Shown here: piece by piece, positions 3,570-32,000 of the stretch
How the letters are laid out: every line of letters begins with the position of its first letter
How positions within the stretch are numbered: the stretch's first letter is position 1
From: Candidatus Saccharimonadota bacterium
GTDB taxonomy: Bacteria; Bacteroidota; Bacteroidia; Flavobacteriales; Blattabacteriaceae
Direction: 5' to 3'
Length of the DNA stretch: 32,000 bases
Assembly: GCF_014251775.1 (NCBI RefSeq)
Contig: NZ_CP059199.1
Coordinates: forward strand, 330,001-362,000
Translations under genes and position numbers: made by a program
The notes under the pieces: generated by a model
The model's input: only the letters and a program-made list of their open reading frames with translations
What the model was told of the DNA's origin: nothing
Databases searched by the model: none

Positions 3570-4421
3570 TTATAAATTCTTATCATTTTTCCTAAATTGA
3601 TTGATCTTATTATTTAAAATTATTTTTTTATAAAACTGTTGATAAACAGTTTTAATCTCTTCTATTGGATAATATTTTAGCACTAATAATTTATTTATTT
3701 TTTTGATATAATTTTCTATTTTTTCAGGAAAAAAAACATCTCCTTTCATTACTGCATCTGAATAGTACAGACATAATTTTGTTAAATTAAAATAATCTGG
3801 ATTTTTCATTATTTCTAACTGATTAGATTTAACTCCATCTAATTTTATTTTTTTTATAACGTCTTTGTTTAACAATCCTTTGAAAGGATTATTATAAATT
3901 GATACGATTATTCTAGTTTTTTGATATAAAGCATCGTTTTTATACATTTTTTTTACATATAAAGGGATAAAAAAACTGATCCATCCATATAAATGGATAA
4001 TATCTGGTTTCCAATTTAATTTTTTAACTGCTTCTAAAACACCTTTCGTAAAAAATAATGCTCTTTCATCATTATCTACGAAAAAATTTCCCTTTTCATC
4101 TTTATCTATAGCTTTTCTTTTAAAATATTCTTCATTATCTATAAAATAAACCTGTAATCGAGCATCAGGAATAGATGCTACTTTTATTAATAAAGGTTGA
4201 TCTATATTATTAATTATTAAATTCATTCCAGATAAACGAATCACTTCATGCAATTGATGCCGTCTTTCATTTATTAATCCAAAACGTGGCATAAATATTC
4301 TAACATCATTACCTATGGATTGCATAAATTTAGATGCATTTAAAACTGATAAAGAAATTTTATTTTCTGAAGAAAAAGGAAATAAATCTGAAGAAACATA
4401 TAGTATACGTTTACCTGTCAT
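3570..4421 (-). CDS. Glycogen/starch-synthase-like protein (short form with a GT5-type N-terminal domain only)
   Basis: 283 aa. The N-terminus ILYVSSDLFPFSSE and overall pattern resemble the short 'glycogen synthase' proteins of Flavobacteriia. No full GT-B C-terminal domain is present. Confidence 0.55.
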   Translation of the reverse strand: MTGKRILYVSSDLFPFSSENKISLSVLNASKFMQSIGNDVRIFMPRFGLINERRHQLHEVIRLSGMNLIINNIDQPLLIKVASIPDARLQVYFIDNEEYFKRKAIDKDEKGNFFVDNDERALFFTKGVLEAVKKLNWKPDIIHLYGWISFFIPLYVKKMYKNDALYQKTRIIVSIYNNPFKGLLNKDVIKKIKLDGVKSNQLEIMKNPDYFNLTKLCLYYSDAVMKGDVFFPEKIENYIKKINKLLVLKYYPIEEIKTVYQQFYKKIILNNKINQFRKNDKNL

Positions 4422-7484: not shown

Positions 7485-10400
7485 GTGAATAAAAAAAAAT
7501 CTTATATTAAAATTTTTATTATTTATTTTTTATCTTTATTACTAGTTTGCATAACTATTATATTTATAGTTATTTATGCAGGATATAAAGGATTTTTAGG
7601 AAAATTACCTAGTGATAAAGAAATAAGAAGTCCAAAAATGGAAATTGGATCAAAAGTATATGATTGTAAAGGCGTATTACTAGGAAAATTTTTTTATGAA
7701 AATAGAAATTTAATTACTTATAAACAACTTCCAAAGAATTTAGTAAATGCTTTATTAGCAAAAGAAGATATACGTTTTCGAAAACATTCAGGAATTGATA
7801 TAAAATCAATTATAAGAGCTATTTTATCTATGGGAAAAAAAGGAGGAGGTAGTACAATTTCCCAACAATTAGCTAAGTTGTTCTTTACTAAGAAATCAGC
7901 AAAAAACAAAATTGAAAGAATTAATCAAAAAATATTAGAATGGATAATCGCTTTAGAATTAGAAAAACGTTATTCTAAAGAAGAAATTATTACTATGTAT
8001 TATAATAAATTCGATTTTTTATACAATGCAAAAGGAATTGATACAGCTGCTCATACATATTTTGATAAAAAAGTTATTAATCTTAATTTAAATGAATGTG
8101 CTATATTGGTTGGAATGCTTGAAAATCCTTCTTTATATAATCCAATAGATTATCCCAATAGAGCAAAAAAACAAAGAAATTTAGTTTTATTTCAAATGAT
8201 GAAATATAACTTTTTAAAGAATAATCAATATAATAATGAGTCTAAAAAACCAATAAGAACTTATTTTAAAATGAAAGATAAGGATATTGAATTTGTTACT
8301 TATTATGGTGGTTTTCTTAAAAAAGAAATTCAAAATTTATTAAATGAATACGAAATAAAAAAAGGAATAAAATTAAATCTTTATACTAGCGGATTAAAAA
8401 TATATACATCTATTGATTCTAGAATGCAGAATTATGCAGAAAAATCTATAAAAATACATCTTAAAAAATTGCAATCAATATTCGATTCTATACAGAAAAA
8501 AAATAAAAAAGCTCCTTTTTCAAATATTTCTTATAAAAAAATAAATCGGATAATTTTATCGTCAATGCGACGAACTAATCTATATAATAGATTGAAAAAG
8601 AAAGGAATGGCTGAAAAAAATATTATAAAAATATTTAAAAAGAAAATTTTAGTTAAATTATTTACTTGGGATGGTAATAAAAAAGTTATGATGTCACCTT
8701 TGGATTTTATCCGTTATAAAAAAGGAATTATTCAAGCCGGATTATTATCAATGGAATCTTCTACAGGCCATATCAAAGCATGGGTTGGGGGTATAGATTT
8801 CAATAATTTTCAATATGATCATGTAGCACAAACAAAAAGACAAGTTGGATCAATATTTAAACCTATTTTATATGCTGCTGCAATTAAAAAATTACATTAT
8901 AATCCTTGTACAATTATTTCAAATGAAAAATTTAAACTAAAAAATTGGATTCCTAGAAATCATAATGGAAAATATGGAGGATTTATGACATTAAAAGATG
9001 GATTGGCACTATCAGTAAATACTGTATCCGCTCGTATAATGGAAAAAGTTACTCCAAAAACAGTAATTGAATTAGCAAAAAAAATGGGGGTAGAATCCAC
9101 TATTCCAGAAAATCAATCCATTGCATTAGGATCTGCAGATCTTACTTTATATGAAATGACAGGAGTATTTAATACTTTTTCAAATTTTGGAATTTATAAT
9201 AAACCTTCTATTTTATTAAAAATAGAAGATAGAAATGGAAATATTATTAAATATAATTATAATATTAAAAGAAAAGTTCTTAATAAAGACGTTGCATATA
9301 TTATGTTAAACTTAATGCAAGGAGTAGTAAAATATGGAACAGCTAAAAGATTAACCAATCTATATAATATTAAAGGAGATATCGCAGGAAAAACTGGTAC
9401 TACTAACGATAATTCAGATGGATGGTTTATAGGGATGATCCCTAATCTCACTACTGGTGTTTGGGTAGGATGGGAAAATAGATTTTCTCATTTTAATAGT
9501 CTAAAATTAGGACAAGGAGCTAATATGGCACTGCCTATATGGGCACATTATACAAACTATTTATATCACGATAAAAACTTTATTTATAATGAAAAAATGT
9601 TTTTTAAAAAACCTAAAAATTATCAATGGGATGAATGTGAAAACAAAATGGATCAAAAAGATGAAGATCAAATTAATCATAAAAAAGATAATAAGGAATT
9701 TATAGAAAATAAAACAGATAATCCAAATACTTTAGAAGATAATAAAGATAAAAATGAATTGAAATCTCCAGATAAAAAAGAAGATAAAGCGATTCAATCT
9801 GAAGAAAAACCCGAAACTAAATCTACCGGTAATAAACCCGAAACTAAATCTACCGGTAATAAATCCGAAACTAAATCTACCGGTAATAAACCCGAAACTA
9901 AATCTACTGGAAAGAAACCCGAAACTAAATCTACTGGGAAGAAACCCGAAACTAAATCTACTGGAAAGAAACCCGAAACTAAATCTACTGGGAAGAAACC
10001 CGAAACTAAATCTACTGGGAAGAAACCCGAAACTAAATCTACTGGAAAGAAACCCGAAACTAAATCTACTGGAAAGAAACCCGAAACTAAATCTACTGGG
10101 AAGAAACCTGAAACTAAATCTACTGGGAAGAAACCTGAAACTAAATCTACTGGTAAGAAACCTGAAACTAAATCTACCGGTAAGAAACCTGAAACTAAAT
10201 CTACTGGTAAGAAACCTGAAACTAAATCTACCGGTAAGAAACCTGAAACTAAATCTAAAGGAAAGAAACCTGAAACTAAATCTAAAGGAAAGAAACCTGA
10301 AACTAAATCTACCGGTAAGAAACCCGAAACTAAATCTACTGGTAAGAAACCTGAAACTAAATCTACCGGTAAGAAACCCGAAACTAAATCTACTGGTAAG

Positions 10401-10949
10401 AAACCTGAAACTAAATCTAAAGGAAAAAAACCTGAACTAAAATCTACTGGTAAGAAACCTGAAACTAAATCTAAAGGAAAAAAACCTGAACTAAAATCTA
10501 CTGGAAAAAAACCTGAAACTAAATCTAAAGGAAAAAAAACTGAACTAAAATCTACTGGAAAAAAACCTGAAACTAAATCTAAAGGAAAGAAAACCGAAAC
10601 TAAATCTACCGGTAAGAAACCTGAAACTAAATCTACCGGTAAGAAACCTGAAACTAAATCTAAAGGAAAAAAACCTGAACTAAAATCTACTGGGAAGAAA
10701 CCTGAAACTAAATCTAAAGGAAAAAAACCTGAACTAAAATCTACTGGAAAAAAACCTGAAACTAAATCTAAAGGAAAGAAACCCGAAACTAAATCTACCG
10801 GTAAGAAAACTGAAACTAAATCTAAAGGAAAAAAACCTGAACTAAAATCTACTGGAAAAAAACCTGAAACTAAATCTACCGGTAAGAAAACTGAAACTAA
10901 ATCTAAAGGAAAAAAACCTGAAACTAAATCTAAAGGAAAAAAACCCTAA
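7485..10949 (+). CDS. mrcA: Class A penicillin-binding protein 1A (transglycosylase/transpeptidase) with a ~380-aa repeat tail
   Basis: N-terminal TM helix. GT51 motifs EDIRFRKHSGID and GGSTISQQLAK. TP motifs SIFK (Ser456), SVN and KTGT (Lys636). GTG at 7485 is the only plausible start: there is a stop 18 nt upstream in frame, and the next in-frame ATG lies after the TM helix. The C-terminal third is the tandem-repeat array. Confidence 0.9.
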   Translation: MNKKKSYIKIFIIYFLSLLLVCITIIFIVIYAGYKGFLGKLPSDKEIRSPKMEIGSKVYDCKGVLLGKFFYENRNLITYKQLPKNLVNALLAKEDIRFRKHSGIDIKSIIRAILSMGKKGGGSTISQQLAKLFFTKKSAKNKIERINQKILEWIIALELEKRYSKEEIITMYYNKFDFLYNAKGIDTAAHTYFDKKVINLNLNECAILVGMLENPSLYNPIDYPNRAKKQRNLVLFQMMKYNFLKNNQYNNESKKPIRTYFKMKDKDIEFVTYYGGFLKKEIQNLLNEYEIKKGIKLNLYTSGLKIYTSIDSRMQNYAEKSIKIHLKKLQSIFDSIQKKNKKAPFSNISYKKINRIILSSMRRTNLYNRLKKKGMAEKNIIKIFKKKILVKLFTWDGNKKVMMSPLDFIRYKKGIIQAGLLSMESSTGHIKAWVGGIDFNNFQYDHVAQTKRQVGSIFKPILYAAAIKKLHYNPCTIISNEKFKLKNWIPRNHNGKYGGFMTLKDGLALSVNTVSARIMEKVTPKTVIELAKKMGVESTIPENQSIALGSADLTLYEMTGVFNTFSNFGIYNKPSILLKIEDRNGNIIKYNYNIKRKVLNKDVAYIMLNLMQGVVKYGTAKRLTNLYNIKGDIAGKTGTTNDNSDGWFIGMIPNLTTGVWVGWENRFSHFNSLKLGQGANMALPIWAHYTNYLYHDKNFIYNEKMFFKKPKNYQWDECENKMDQKDEDQINHKKDNKEFIENKTDNPNTLEDNKDKNELKSPDKKEDKAIQSEEKPETKSTGNKPETKSTGNKSETKSTGNKPETKSTGKKPETKSTGKKPETKSTGKKPETKSTGKKPETKSTGKKPETKSTGKKPETKSTGKKPETKSTGKKPETKSTGKKPETKSTGKKPETKSTGKKPETKSTGKKPETKSTGKKPETKSKGKKPETKSKGKKPETKSTGKKPETKSTGKKPETKSTGKKPETKSTGKKPETKSKGKKPELKSTGKKPETKSKGKKPELKSTGKKPETKSKGKKTELKSTGKKPETKSKGKKTETKSTGKKPETKSTGKKPETKSKGKKPELKSTGKKPETKSKGKKPELKSTGKKPETKSKGKKPETKSTGKKTETKSKGKKPELKSTGKKPETKSTGKKTETKSKGKKPETKSKGKKP
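9807..10946 (+). repeat. About 42 tandem in-frame copies of a 27-nt unit encoding KPETKSTGK and variants
   Basis: Direct reading: consensus aaa cc[c/t] gaa act aaa tct ac[c/t] ggn aa[g/a], uninterrupted from 9807 to the last codon before the stop. 1140 nt / 27 = 42.2 units. The 3' half is organised as 54-nt double units. Confidence 0.95.
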
Positions 10950-26156: not shown

Positions 26157-26273
26157 TTATCCCTGTTTTTGTTTGAATTTAGGATTTTTTTTATTAATAA
26201 TTCTTAAACAACCTTTCCTGCTAACAATTATGCAATTATTAGTTCTTTTTTTTAGAGATGCTTTTATTTTCAT
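26157..26273 (-). CDS. rpmJ: 50S ribosomal protein L36 (not in the supplied ORF track)
   Basis: Hand translation of the minus strand gives MKIKASLKKRTNNCIIVSRKGCLRIINKKNPKFKQKQG*, 38 aa. This is the Bacteroidota-type L36 pattern, in the canonical infA-rpmJ-rpsM slot. Confidence 0.85.
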   Translation of the reverse strand: MKIKASLKKRTNNCIIVSRKGCLRIINKKNPKFKQKQG

Positions 26274-28056: not shown

Positions 28057-28497
28057 TTAGGATAAATGTATTTCACCACCTGAATCTTTAATTTTTTTTA
28101 AAGCACTTTTAGTACATTTTTTAACAAAAAAAATTATTGATCTATTTAGATTTCCTCTTCCTAAAATTTTAATAGACATATTTTTTTTTATCAATCTTTT
28201 TTTGATTAAAGTTTCTTTACAAACGATTTCTCTTTCTTTAAAATATCCTTTATCAATGAATTTTTGTATAAAATCTAAATTAATCTCAATAAATTTTTTT
28301 CTAAAAGATCTTTTGAATCCAAATTTTGGAATTCTTCTATGTAAAGGCATTTGTCCACCTTCAAATCCTATTTTTTTAGAAAATCCTGATCTTGATTTAT
28401 CTCCTTTATTTCCTCTTCCACATGTTCCTCCTTTTCCGGAACCTTGACCTCTTCCTAATCTAATTTTTTTTCTTGAATTAAAATCCATTATGTACAT
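28057..28497 (-). CDS. rplO: 50S ribosomal protein L15
   Basis: GRGQGSGKGGTCGRGNKGDKSRSG is the glycine-rich L15 N-terminal motif. The start could be the ATG at 28497 or at 28488, and both overlap the rpsE 3' end. Confidence 0.9.
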   Translation of the reverse strand: MYIMDFNSRKKIRLGRGQGSGKGGTCGRGNKGDKSRSGFSKKIGFEGGQMPLHRRIPKFGFKRSFRKKFIEINLDFIQKFIDKGYFKEREIVCKETLIKKRLIKKNMSIKILGRGNLNRSIIFFVKKCTKSALKKIKDSGGEIHLS

Positions 28498-29023
28498 TTT
28501 TGATACTAATTCCTCTTTCTTTAGCTACAAAATTTGAATCTCTTATTTTACTAAGTGCTTTAATAGTAGCTTTAATAATATTATGGTGATTGGACGATCC
28601 TTTAGATTTTGATAAAACATTTCTTAATCCTGATGCTTTTAAAACTGATCTTAAAGTTCCACCTGCTATAATTCCAGTTCCATCTGAAGCAGGAATTATA
28701 AGAACTTTAGCTCCACCATATTTAGCTTCTTGTTTATGTGGAACTGTTCCATTTAAAATACAAATTTTTCGTATACTTCTTTTAGCTTGTTCTCCGGCTT
28801 TTCTAATTGCATCTGGAGCATCTTTTGATTTACCAAATCCATATCCTACATATCCACTTTCATTTCCTTTAATCACTACAGCACTAAAACTAAAATATCT
28901 TCTACCTTTAGTTACTTTACATACTCTTGTTACCCCAATTAATTTTTCTTTTAATTCTAAACCTAAATATTTTGTTTTCTTTTCTCTATTTTTATTTATA
29001 AAAAAATTTTTTTGTGCTATCAT
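28478..29023 (-). CDS. rpsE: 30S ribosomal protein S5
   Basis: 181 aa. VTRVCKVTKGRRYFSFSAVVIKGNESGYVGYGFGKSKDAPDAIRKA and GTGIIAGGTLRSVLKASG are canonical. Confidence 0.95.
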   Translation of the reverse strand: MIAQKNFFINKNREKKTKYLGLELKEKLIGVTRVCKVTKGRRYFSFSAVVIKGNESGYVGYGFGKSKDAPDAIRKAGEQAKRSIRKICILNGTVPHKQEAKYGGAKVLIIPASDGTGIIAGGTLRSVLKASGLRNVLSKSKGSSNHHNIIKATIKALSKIRDSNFVAKERGISIKNVHNGF

Positions 29024-30687: not shown

Positions 30688-31263
30688 TTAATTTTTTTTT
30701 TTAAATGGAATTCCTAATAAAGATAAAAGACCTTTAGATTCCAAATATTTTGTTGTAGAAATTACAAATGTAATATTCATTCCCATATTTTTTCTAATTT
30801 CATCTATATTTATTTCTGGAAAAATTATTTGTTCTTTAATTCCAATATTATAATTTCCACAATTATCAAATCCACTATTGGATAATCCATTAAAATCTCT
30901 TACTCTAGGTAAATAAACTACAATAAGTCTTTCCAGGAATTCATACATTTTATCTCTTCTTAATGTTACTTTTACACCTATAGGGGTCCCTTTTCTTAAT
31001 TTAAATCCAGATTCGTCATGTTTAGAATAACAAATAATTGCTTTTTGTCCACTTATATTTGTTAATTCTTTTAAAGAAGAGTCTAATATTTTTTTATCAT
31101 TTAAATAAGTACTACCTATTCCCTGATGAATTACAATTTTTAATAATTTAGGAACTTCCATAATAGAATTATACCCAAATTTTTTCATTAATTTTTTAGT
31201 TACATTTTTTTTATAAAAATTATATAATTGAGGGGTGTAATCAGAAAAATTATTTAGATTCAT
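30688..31263 (-). CDS. rplE: 50S ribosomal protein L5
   Basis: 191 aa. YTPQLYNFYKKNVTKKLMKKFGYNSIMEVPKLLKIVIHQGIG and MYEFLERLI are canonical. The start overlaps the rplX 3' end by 14 nt. Confidence 0.9.
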   Translation of the reverse strand: MNLNNFSDYTPQLYNFYKKNVTKKLMKKFGYNSIMEVPKLLKIVIHQGIGSTYLNDKKILDSSLKELTNISGQKAIICYSKHDESGFKLRKGTPIGVKVTLRRDKMYEFLERLIVVYLPRVRDFNGLSNSGFDNCGNYNIGIKEQIIFPEINIDEIRKNMGMNITFVISTTKYLESKGLLSLLGIPFKKKN

Positions 31264-31927
31264 TTTTATTAATCTTTTTTAGATTAGATAAATGTATATA
31301 ATATCTATTTTTTGATTCTTTATTAAAACTTTTTTTCAAATTATTATTAAAATTCTTTTTCAAATTTTTATTAAAATAATTTTTCAAATTATTATTAAAA
31401 TTTTTTTTCAAATTTTTATTAAGATAATTTTTTAAATTTTTATCAAAATAGTTTTTCAAATCTTTATCAAGATCATTTTTCAAATCTTTATCAAGATCAT
31501 TTTTTGAATCTTTATCAAGATCATTTTTCAAATCTTTATCAAGATCATTTTTTGAATCTTTATCAAGATCATTTTTTGAATCTTTATCAAGATCATTTTT
31601 TGAATCTTTATCAAGATCATTTTTCAAATCTTTATCAAGATCATTTTTTGAATCTTTATCAAGATCATTTTTTGAATCTTTATCAAGATCATTTTTTGAA
31701 TCTTTATCAGAATTATTTATATTTACATTTGTGATATCATTGTTTATATTGATATCACTGTTTACATTAGTGATATCACTAAACTTAGTGATATCACTAT
31801 TAATAATATCACTAAAAATAGCTTTATTTTTTTTTGTTAAAATTTTTAATACAATTCCTTTTTTCCCTTTGTGATTTCCAGATAATACAATTACTTTATC
31901 CCCTTTTTTTATCTTAAATTTTTTCAT
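31250..31927 (-). CDS. rplX: 50S ribosomal protein L24, highly aberrant: KOW domain + ~165-aa repeat insertion + short conserved strand, C-terminus missing
   Basis: Canonical position between rplN and rplE. The N-terminal KOW motif KKGDKVIVLSGNHKGKKGIVLKILTKKNKAI is present. Residues ~38-201 are low-complexity repeats. YYIHLSNL resembles the conserved (P)IHxSNV strand. Total length is 225 aa versus about 100-110 aa for normal bacterial L24. Confidence 0.75.
   Translation of the reverse strand: MKKFKIKKGDKVIVLSGNHKGKKGIVLKILTKKNKAIFSDIINSDITKFSDITNVNSDININNDITNVNINNSDKDSKNDLDKDSKNDLDKDSKNDLDKDLKNDLDKDSKNDLDKDSKNDLDKDSKNDLDKDLKNDLDKDSKNDLDKDLKNDLDKDLKNYFDKNLKNYLNKNLKKNFNNNLKNYFNKNLKKNFNNNLKKSFNKESKNRYYIHLSNLKKINKNESK
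31325..31708 (-). repeat. 16 tandem in-frame copies of a 24-nt unit (gat aaa gat tca/ttg aaa aat gat ctt = DKD[S/L]KNDL): 10 near-perfect copies, then 6 decayed
   Basis: Direct reading. The plus strand shows aagatcatttttt(g/c)a(a)atctttatc iterated. Near-perfect units occupy 31469-31708. Decayed units (DKDLKNYF, DKNLKNYL, NKNLKKNF, NNNLKNYF, NKNLKKNF, NNNLKKSF) occupy 31325-31468. Confidence 0.95.
31731..31815 (-). repeat. Degenerate 18-21-nt tandem repeat carrying the palindrome GATATC (encodes SDITN[V/F]N-like units)
   Basis: gtgatatcac(t) recurs at about 31731, 31750, 31770 and 31788, with a degenerate copy (aatatcact) at about 31806. It lies immediately N-terminal to the 24-nt array in the L24 reading frame. 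Confidence 0.8.
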
Positions 31928-31940
31928 ATTTTTTATTATA

Positions 31941-32000
31941 TTATAACACCTCTTGTGCTAAAGATATAATTTTCATATATTCTTTTTCTCTTAATTCTCT
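31941..32000 (-). CDS. rplN: 50S ribosomal protein L14, 3' end only (gene continues off-window)
   Basis: Minus-strand translation from base 32000 gives RELREKEYMKIISLAQEVL*, the conserved L14 C-terminus. The stop codon is at 31941-31943. Confidence 0.85.
   Translation of the reverse strand, partial: RELREKEYMKIISLAQEVL

Follow-up and report, generated by a model that had tools for sequence, protein, structure and literature searches.

The β-hairpin of ribosomal protein uL24 (L24) in Escherichia coli (KKHQKPVPALNQPGG, residues 43-57 as checked against PDB chains) is a finger that partly obstructs the exit port of the ribosomal tunnel (Kudva et al. 2018, PMC6298777). In the E. coli strain HDB144, residues 43-57 of uL24 are deleted (Peterson et al. 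2010); the strain is viable, and was used by Kudva et al. (PMC6298777). As a whole, uL24 ranks with the ribosomal proteins that genomes under 1 Mb have lost most frequently, and its knockout in E. coli is viable (Nikolaeva et al. 2020/2021, PMC7782861). Here we describe rplX, the gene for uL24, in a stretch of 32,000 nucleotides (positions 330,001 to 362,000 of NZ_CP059199.1, hereafter the window; GC content ∼22%) from the 561,716-bp (562 kb) chromosome of Blattabacterium cuenoti, a cockroach endosymbiont. The central hairpin is absent from the encoded protein, and two in-frame tandem arrays stand between its conserved N-terminus and its last barrel strand. Since both the hairpin deletion and the uL24 knockout are viable, the part that is lost here is known to be dispensable, as is, under laboratory conditions, the protein as a whole. 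We favor, with moderate confidence, the reading that this is a still-coding rplX in which a tolerated, neutrally evolving slippage insertion has replaced the dispensable exit-port hairpin.

The locus resembles HDB144 in that the same KKHxKP...PGG hairpin is missing, while the KOW barrel strands on either side of it are kept. In the E. coli strain, however, the loop was simply deleted, widening the exit, whereas here ∼170 repeat residues are found instead, and the window L24 is also without the C-terminal 30 residues. The locus further resembles the uL24 losses of tiny genomes (PMC7782861), in that a non-essential surface protein and assembly initiator escapes strong constraint in a reduced endosymbiont, but differs from them in that rplX is neither deleted nor interrupted, having instead grown threefold with its core strands kept. 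The elements of the case, erosion of ribosomal proteins in tiny genomes and slippage inserts in AT-rich genomes, are known, and it does not represent a new kind of system; it is an instance of unusual ribosome erosion, and not a proven new feature of the ribosome.

The rplX open reading frame (ORF; 31250..31927, minus strand) consists of 225 codons and a stop, with an ATG start. It is identified by the ORF listing, by its neighbors (the 3' end of rplN and rplE), and by the matches of its N-terminus to the Pfam KOW and TIGR01079 models. The first-pass annotation, made by a model from the letters and a list of ORFs, had placed a gene of 225 amino acids (aa) in the rplN-rplX-rplE slot, and this is borne out; the same gene order is common to 10 relatives, the position being that expected of the bacterial uL24 family (TIGR01079 / PF17136 + PF00467). 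The rplN stop (31941-31943) lies 13 nt upstream of the rplX start. The rplX stop TAA (31250-31252) lies inside rplE, which starts at 31263, so that the two genes overlap by 14 nt (31250..31263, minus strand), as given by the ORF coordinates and by an NCBI L5 record with the same 191-aa extent. The short tail and the stop within the start of rplE were likewise read correctly in the first pass.

Residues 1-37 (31817..31927, minus strand) correspond to strands 1-3 of the KOW, or SH3-like, barrel and are conserved, as judged by Pfam, sequence identity, AlphaFold2 and Foldseek. The KOW motif at residues 8-37 (E 1.3e-7, 31.5 bits against a cut-off of 22.3 bits) is the sole Pfam match of the protein, and TIGR01079 (rplX_bact) aligns with residues 4-42 only, which correspond to profile positions 2-40 of 104, in agreement with the earlier description of a normal KOW N-terminus. 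Residues 38-73 (31709..31816, minus strand) comprise a degenerate array of the SDITN type, with a net charge of -4, which had also been recognized from the sequence and is detected by Tandem Repeats Finder as the second and poorer of two arrays (31722-31798, period 18/39 bp). Residues 74-153 (31469..31708, minus strand; defined by the codon table and Tandem Repeats Finder) are encoded by ten exact 24-nt units of two types, carry a net charge of -10, and represent the young part of the main array. These are followed by residues 154-209 (31301..31468, minus strand), encoded by seven decayed units (DKDLKNYF ... NKESKNRY) distinguished by their differences from the consensus and by a GC content of 8.9%, with a net charge of +12. 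Residues 210-225 and the stop (31250..31300, minus strand) contain the native last barrel strand, assigned by DNA alignment, with the lineage-typical end (Y)IHLSNLKK followed by INKNESK; residues 210-225 read YIHLSNLKKINKNESK, and the tail YYIHLSNLKKINKNESK.

Read codon by codon, the exact units are of two types, DKDSKNDL (GATAAAGATTCAAAAAATGATCTT) and DKDLKNDL (...TTG...), with DNA starting GATAAAGATTCA... / GATAAAGATTTG... Units 1-10 are exact copies, while units 11-17 are progressively degenerate. Tandem Repeats Finder reports the tract 31319-31718 with a period of 24 bp (16.7 copies, 90% matches, 0% indels, score 303), and the same tract read at 72 bp with a score of 518. The repeats noted in the first pass as 16 units of DKD[S/L]KNDL are thus present, while the count is amended to 10 perfect and 6-7 decayed units. 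Ten identical 24-mers are far beyond chance, and the array has the head-to-tail arrangement, the period divisible by three and the near-identical young copies of a slippage array. The junction peptides are ...KNKAIFSDIIN... between the KOW part and the arrays, and ...SKNRYYIHLSNLK... between the arrays and the C-terminal strand. Charge is segregated along the insert, with a net -14 over residues 38-153 and +12 over residues 154-209, the protein as a whole having a pI of 9.4, and the older units carry Leu, Phe or Tyr at every fourth position.

Comparison with the genus separates what is lineage-typical in this protein from what is particular to it. A total of 24 other Blattabacterium L24s were compared (15 database proteins and 9 from loci; rplX was read at the loci of ten other B. 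cuenoti strains, with the protein of strain ESCALves, which is P0121, counted once). All 24 are short (72-128 aa), ending soon after PIH[ILVM]SN[LIV], and cover only positions 1-75 of the 104 in the TIGR01079 profile, yet score 79-90 bits, above the cut-off. The C-terminal ∼30 residues (profile 75-104) are missing in the window protein and in 24/24 of the others, and are present in free-living Flavobacteriia (e.g. P0192). Because these residues are missing throughout the genus, their absence is not special to the window rplX, and the claim of a missing canonical C-terminus holds as to the absence itself but not as to its being peculiar to this gene. The lineage C-terminal strand IHLSNLKK is retained in frame, ATACATTTATCTAATCTAAAAAAG matching 22/24 bases of strain ECTONUhan in a DNA alignment. 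MAFFT fails to align this strand across the insert, and its homology was established by the separate DNA alignment.

What is unique to the window rplX is the loss of the central hairpin, and not the missing C-terminus. In the alignment the hairpin GxNxxKKHxKPxxKxxKGxI is absent from the window L24, while KKHxKP...PKGG is present in all 24 other Blattabacterium L24s, and nine of the other L24s, when aligned, show no variation at the hairpin residues G, N, K, H, K, P, G and I. A tblastn search of all frames of the locus, and of the rest of the window, finds no hairpin remnant. The first-pass annotation had described an rRNA-contacting loop replaced by charged low-complexity sequence; the replacement by ∼170 aa of charged repeats is confirmed, but the lost element is more than such a loop, corresponding to the E. 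coli exit-port hairpin, the deletion of which is viable.

The comparison with rplX of other strains proposed in the first pass was carried out, and a comparable repeat-filled L24 was found neither among the 24 other Blattabacterium L24s (0/24) nor among the 150 matches listed from a search of 1.84 billion representatives (0/150), which consisted of unrelated low-complexity D/K/N-rich repeat proteins and a few L24s matched at the N-terminus only. The two proteins whose matches began near the N-terminus, P0250 and P0341, were rejected as unrelated. A search with the full-length protein gave no match at E<=0.001. A separate L24-like protein, P0301 (75 aa), begins with a normal KOW N-terminus and has the non-canonical VSDINNDLQLNVLDIVDIVNLILSGD... 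where the KKHxKP hairpin would be expected, and may be another eroded or frameshifted rplX.

The flanks and the array differ in how they have changed. All of the KOW residues that are invariant in the genus (I6, D10, G17, K20 and G21) are kept, and the mean identity of the KOW part to the other Blattabacterium L24s is 0.60, compared with 0.47-0.72 for strains in which the gene is intact. The decayed units 11-17 have 3-7 changes each, and 24 of their 35 differences from the unit consensus are GC>AT. Their GC content of 8.9% compares with neutral references of 10.5% for codon position 3 and 14.8% for intergenic DNA, so that this part of the array is old and unconstrained, while the KOW part retains G/C-containing Gly, Asp, His and Ala codons. 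Conservation of the flanks while the old units reached neutral GC is the pattern expected from purifying selection on the barrel-forming parts, and suggests that such selection continued after the insertion arose. The neutral divergence of conserved parts that would mark a pseudogene is not seen, a suggestive result that comes from a comparison of identities rather than from a formal ratio of nonsynonymous to synonymous substitution rates (dN/dS).

The reading frame itself was also examined. The 225 codons are open, with neither frameshift nor premature stop nor loss of the start. Stops number 19 and 67 in the two remaining frames of the strand, and the off-frame stop density in neighboring genes is 13% per codon; the frame is thus not trivially open. 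The first-pass proposal, that a stop-free unit keeps the frame open, is largely right for the repeat tract, as only 3-4 of the 72 single-base substitutions possible in a unit generate a stop, but it leaves the conservation of the KOW part and the last strand unexplained. GC>AT changes cannot make stops here. A shuffle-based probability of 0.0004 for the absence of stops in the repeats was rejected as evidence of selection, stops being hard to reach from the unit.

We infer that the arrays arose by replication slippage followed by mutational decay, since their periods are divisible by three, indels are lacking, and exact copies among the young units give way to progressive decay in the older ones. 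In a DNA alignment, TTTAGTGAT (FSD) at the start of the first array is paired with GTTAGTGGT (VSG) of ESCALves, such that FSDIIN at this point is probably the counterpart of the native strand VSG(I/L)NM, and strand 3 seems to run into the first array. Two candidate origins of the repeats were rejected. A derivation of the 24-nt unit from native loop codons (ELKNPKGK, EKES) was dropped, the best in-frame match being 15-16/24 bases (codon-shuffled P 0.4-0.98). Residues 38-75 were considered as a decayed native central region, but their similarity to relatives is non-significant (P 0.2-0.8), and their apparently significant match to Bacillus subtilis L24 was taken as a compositional coincidence, as it is not seen with close relatives.

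In-frame repeats in rplX recur across the genus, in strain CHORISOsp, B. punctulatus and P0122. In CHORISOsp (NZ_CP059214.1; L001 3818-3970), rplX contains a perfect 9-bp x 5 + 9-bp x 12.4 array encoding an acidic C-terminal tail, (FEE)4(GTE)12, that reaches the rplE start, with the hairpin intact and a score of 84.5 bits. The L24 of B. punctulatus (P0135, 103 aa) owes its length to a triplicated last strand, (KKEAPIHISNL)x3, and a short tail, and not to a retained C-terminal domain, while P0122 contains a partial duplicate. Within the window, a PBP1A-family protein (ORF 7485-10949, plus strand; TIGR02074, residues 74-694) ends in a basic tail of ∼380 aa encoded by 42 in-frame 27-bp units (KPETKSTGK, 9807-10945), which adds a further large coding tandem array to the 32 kb. 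As read from these sequences, slippage arrays appear to be a habit of rplX in the genus and of this genome.

The rplX repeats of CHORISOsp, B. punctulatus and P0122 thus share with the window gene, within the same genus, tandem duplications in multiples of three that preserve the frame. They differ in that the repeats follow the last strand in proteins that retain an intact hairpin and score 84-90 bits, whereas those of the window gene are internal and the hairpin is gone. A more distant parallel is provided by Plasmodium falciparum, in which conserved proteins encoded by an AT-rich genome carry Asn/Lys-rich low-complexity inserts derived by slippage. The similarities include the AT-rich genome, the insertion of N/K/D-rich in-frame repeats into a conserved fold at a surface loop, and neutral evolution. 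Here, however, the organism is a bacterial endosymbiont and the protein a core ribosomal one, and a conserved functional loop has been replaced rather than a variable loop extended.

Structure prediction was carried out using AlphaFold2 with an alignment of 25 L24s. The N-terminal strands (residues 11-14, 23-30 and 35-40) are predicted with a pLDDT (predicted local distance difference test) of ∼90, and two C-terminal strands (208-212 and 216-218) with a pLDDT of ∼89. Between them, residue 44 to ∼116 is predicted to be disordered, with the SDITN array (residues 38-73) below a pLDDT of 50, and a helix is predicted at residues 140-205 (pLDDT 80-91). The model is compatible with a barrel closed by a distant C-terminal strand. 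The best Foldseek match is Flavobacterium johnsoniae uL24 (7jil_U), with 56% identity over 36 columns; the alignment covers the N-terminal 33-40 columns only, and is silent on whether the C-terminal strand completes the barrel.

These observations are consistent with the following course of events. Replication slippage in a very AT-rich, fast-evolving genome would have built two in-frame arrays, one of period 18/39 nt and one of 24 nt, in what is taken to be the only rplX of the strain, at the former site of the tunnel-exit β-hairpin KKHxKP...PKGG, the codons of which would have been lost or overwritten. Parts of the SH3-like KOW barrel, namely strands 1-3 (residues 1-42) and the last strand IHLSNLKK, would persist in frame and conserved, such that the gene most likely yields a uL24 with a core still able to dock on the 50S subunit, and with ∼170 residues of filler near the exit port, acidic at first and basic-helical later. 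The filler would be unselected, the old units having decayed to neutral base composition and the young units still expanding. Such an insert could be tolerated because the hairpin, and even the whole of uL24, is dispensable in E. coli, and because uL24 is often lost from tiny genomes.

The first-pass annotation had posed a choice between a radically remodelled protein and a decaying gene. Both survive, but the evidence favors a third reading, the tolerated neutral slippage insertion. Several points weigh against the latter. The protein as a whole scores 39.1 bits with TIGR01079, the NCBIfam L24 equivalog model, below the cut-off of 53.7 bits. All five loop residues that are invariant elsewhere (K, H, K, P and G, in nine strains) are lost, which argues that the loop normally matters. 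An insert of ∼170 residues at the exit port could be harmful, and the helix that AlphaFold2 predicts lies in low-complexity sequence and deserves little trust. The exact 225-aa protein is missing from a 15-billion-sequence collection that holds the L5 of the same genome, and the public annotation, to judge by this absence, probably has no protein call for the ORF, although the lack of a protein record reflects annotation practice only. The open frame across the repeats is in itself weak evidence for coding, given the few mutations that yield stops. Much of this would also fit a dead relic, the main rival reading, in which hairpin loss or later expansion abolished uL24 function, the ribosome assembles without uL24, and the ORF is open only through recency and through a unit that rarely mutates to a stop, the changes observed in it being mostly of the GC>AT kind. 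This account, which we consider possible but the less probable, is also in keeping with the frequent loss of uL24 and the viability of its knockout (PMC7782861), and with a genome among the smaller in a genus whose published genomes range from 511 to 641 kb, the smallest of them without genes affecting mutation rate (PMC8382890). A relic would nevertheless have to have kept 225 codons free of frameshifts and stops despite many A-runs and the off-frame stop density of the neighboring genes. In addition, its KOW part and last strand show no greater divergence than those of intact orthologs, though the old units have come to neutral GC, and the start, the operon spacing and the rplE overlap are intact; the last two are counted in favor of the still-coding reading.

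The insert might instead be a selected appendage at the tunnel exit, with the exit-port finger exchanged for an acidic tract and a long basic amphipathic helix (∼140-205), the helix perhaps replacing lost rRNA contacts and the acidic tract perhaps acting on nascent chains or host factors. The regular spacing of Leu, Phe or Tyr in the older units, the predicted helix, the segregation of charge, and the location at a finger that influences co-translational folding (PMC6298777) all speak for such adaptation. We nevertheless regard it as unlikely, since the older units have reached neutral composition through GC>AT changes (D>N, L>F, D>Y), as mutation pressure alone predicts, the young units are the exact copies typical of ongoing slippage, helix predictions for K/N/L-rich repeats are unreliable, and the insert is confined to this gene in the comparisons described above (absent from the 24 other Blattabacterium L24s, with only unrelated low-complexity proteins or N-terminal L24 matches among the 150 listed). 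More improbable still is an assembly artefact, in which short reads were mis-assembled over low-complexity DNA and the true rplX is a normal gene of ∼75 codons. Units 1-8 do consist of two identical 96-bp blocks, such that short reads cannot fix the copy number; however, the perfect block is flanked by unique, diverged sequence (the SDITN array and seven different decayed units) that is unambiguous to assemble, loop-coding sequence is found by tblastn neither in any frame of the locus nor elsewhere in the window, and the second long in-frame array in the window and the rplX repeats of other strains indicate that such tracts are real. As errors in copy number would change the length only in 24-nt steps, and the flanks contain no hairpin codons, no such error can restore the hairpin, and the structural conclusion is independent of the copy number.

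If the tolerated insertion is indeed made as protein and incorporated, the strain would offer in nature what the uL24 delta-loop ribosome of E. coli offers by engineering, with a large disordered insert at the exit in addition, and would bear on the weight that exit-port geometry has in vivo and on how much erosion a core ribosomal protein can undergo short of being lost. A dead gene would represent a uL24 loss caught in progress, in a genus that otherwise keeps the gene in every strain examined, and would supply a step that can be dated in the loss of ribosomal proteins known from tiny genomes. Were the appendage selected, this ribosome would be the first in bacteria to carry a large exit-port structure built of repeats, re-shaping the tunnel exit and possibly acting on the nascent chains of a symbiont whose set of chaperones is reduced. 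Whether the gene is live or dead, annotation and gene-loss tallies need care at this locus, as an ORF that fails its family model is not necessarily a lost gene.

A second rplX, as sought following the first pass, is not found by tblastn within the 32-kb window. Downstream, rplE (uL5; 30688..31263, minus strand) is intact and 100% identical to WP_185864851.1 of B. cuenoti, while the next-nearest L5 proteins are only 73-74% identical, which places the strain on a long isolated branch without a close sister for comparison. Upstream, the 3' end of rplN (uL14; 31941..32000, minus strand), encoding ...MKIISLAQEVL before its stop, is cut by the window edge; it was identified by reading the sequence, and its C-terminus is shared with relatives. 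Ten other operon proteins were scored (S4, S11, S13, IF-1, SecY, L15, S5, L18, L6 and S8), and 10/10 are above their family cut-offs and approximately full length, such that the erosion is specific to L24 among the operon proteins checked.

Several further features of the window and its relatives were noted. Between rpsE and rplO, which abut or overlap, rpmD (L30) is missing in the window (28057-29023) as well as in strain ESCALves (L002 6190-7159), so that some members of the genus Blattabacterium, at the least, seem to lack L30. The rpmJ gene (L36) is present at 26157-26273 of the window. Among L5 homologs from marine Flavobacteriales metagenomes (P0047-P0120), many are 230-300 aa in length, compared with the usual ∼183, some of the long ones with extensin-like or CTD-repeat Pfam matches (PF02095, PF12815), which suggests that another ribosomal protein carries long low-complexity tails in relatives that are free-living. 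Finally, a 283-aa ORF (3570-4421, minus strand) matches only the N-terminal half of GlgA (profile ∼7-224 of ∼480-490), far below the family cut-offs, and may be a truncated or decaying gene.

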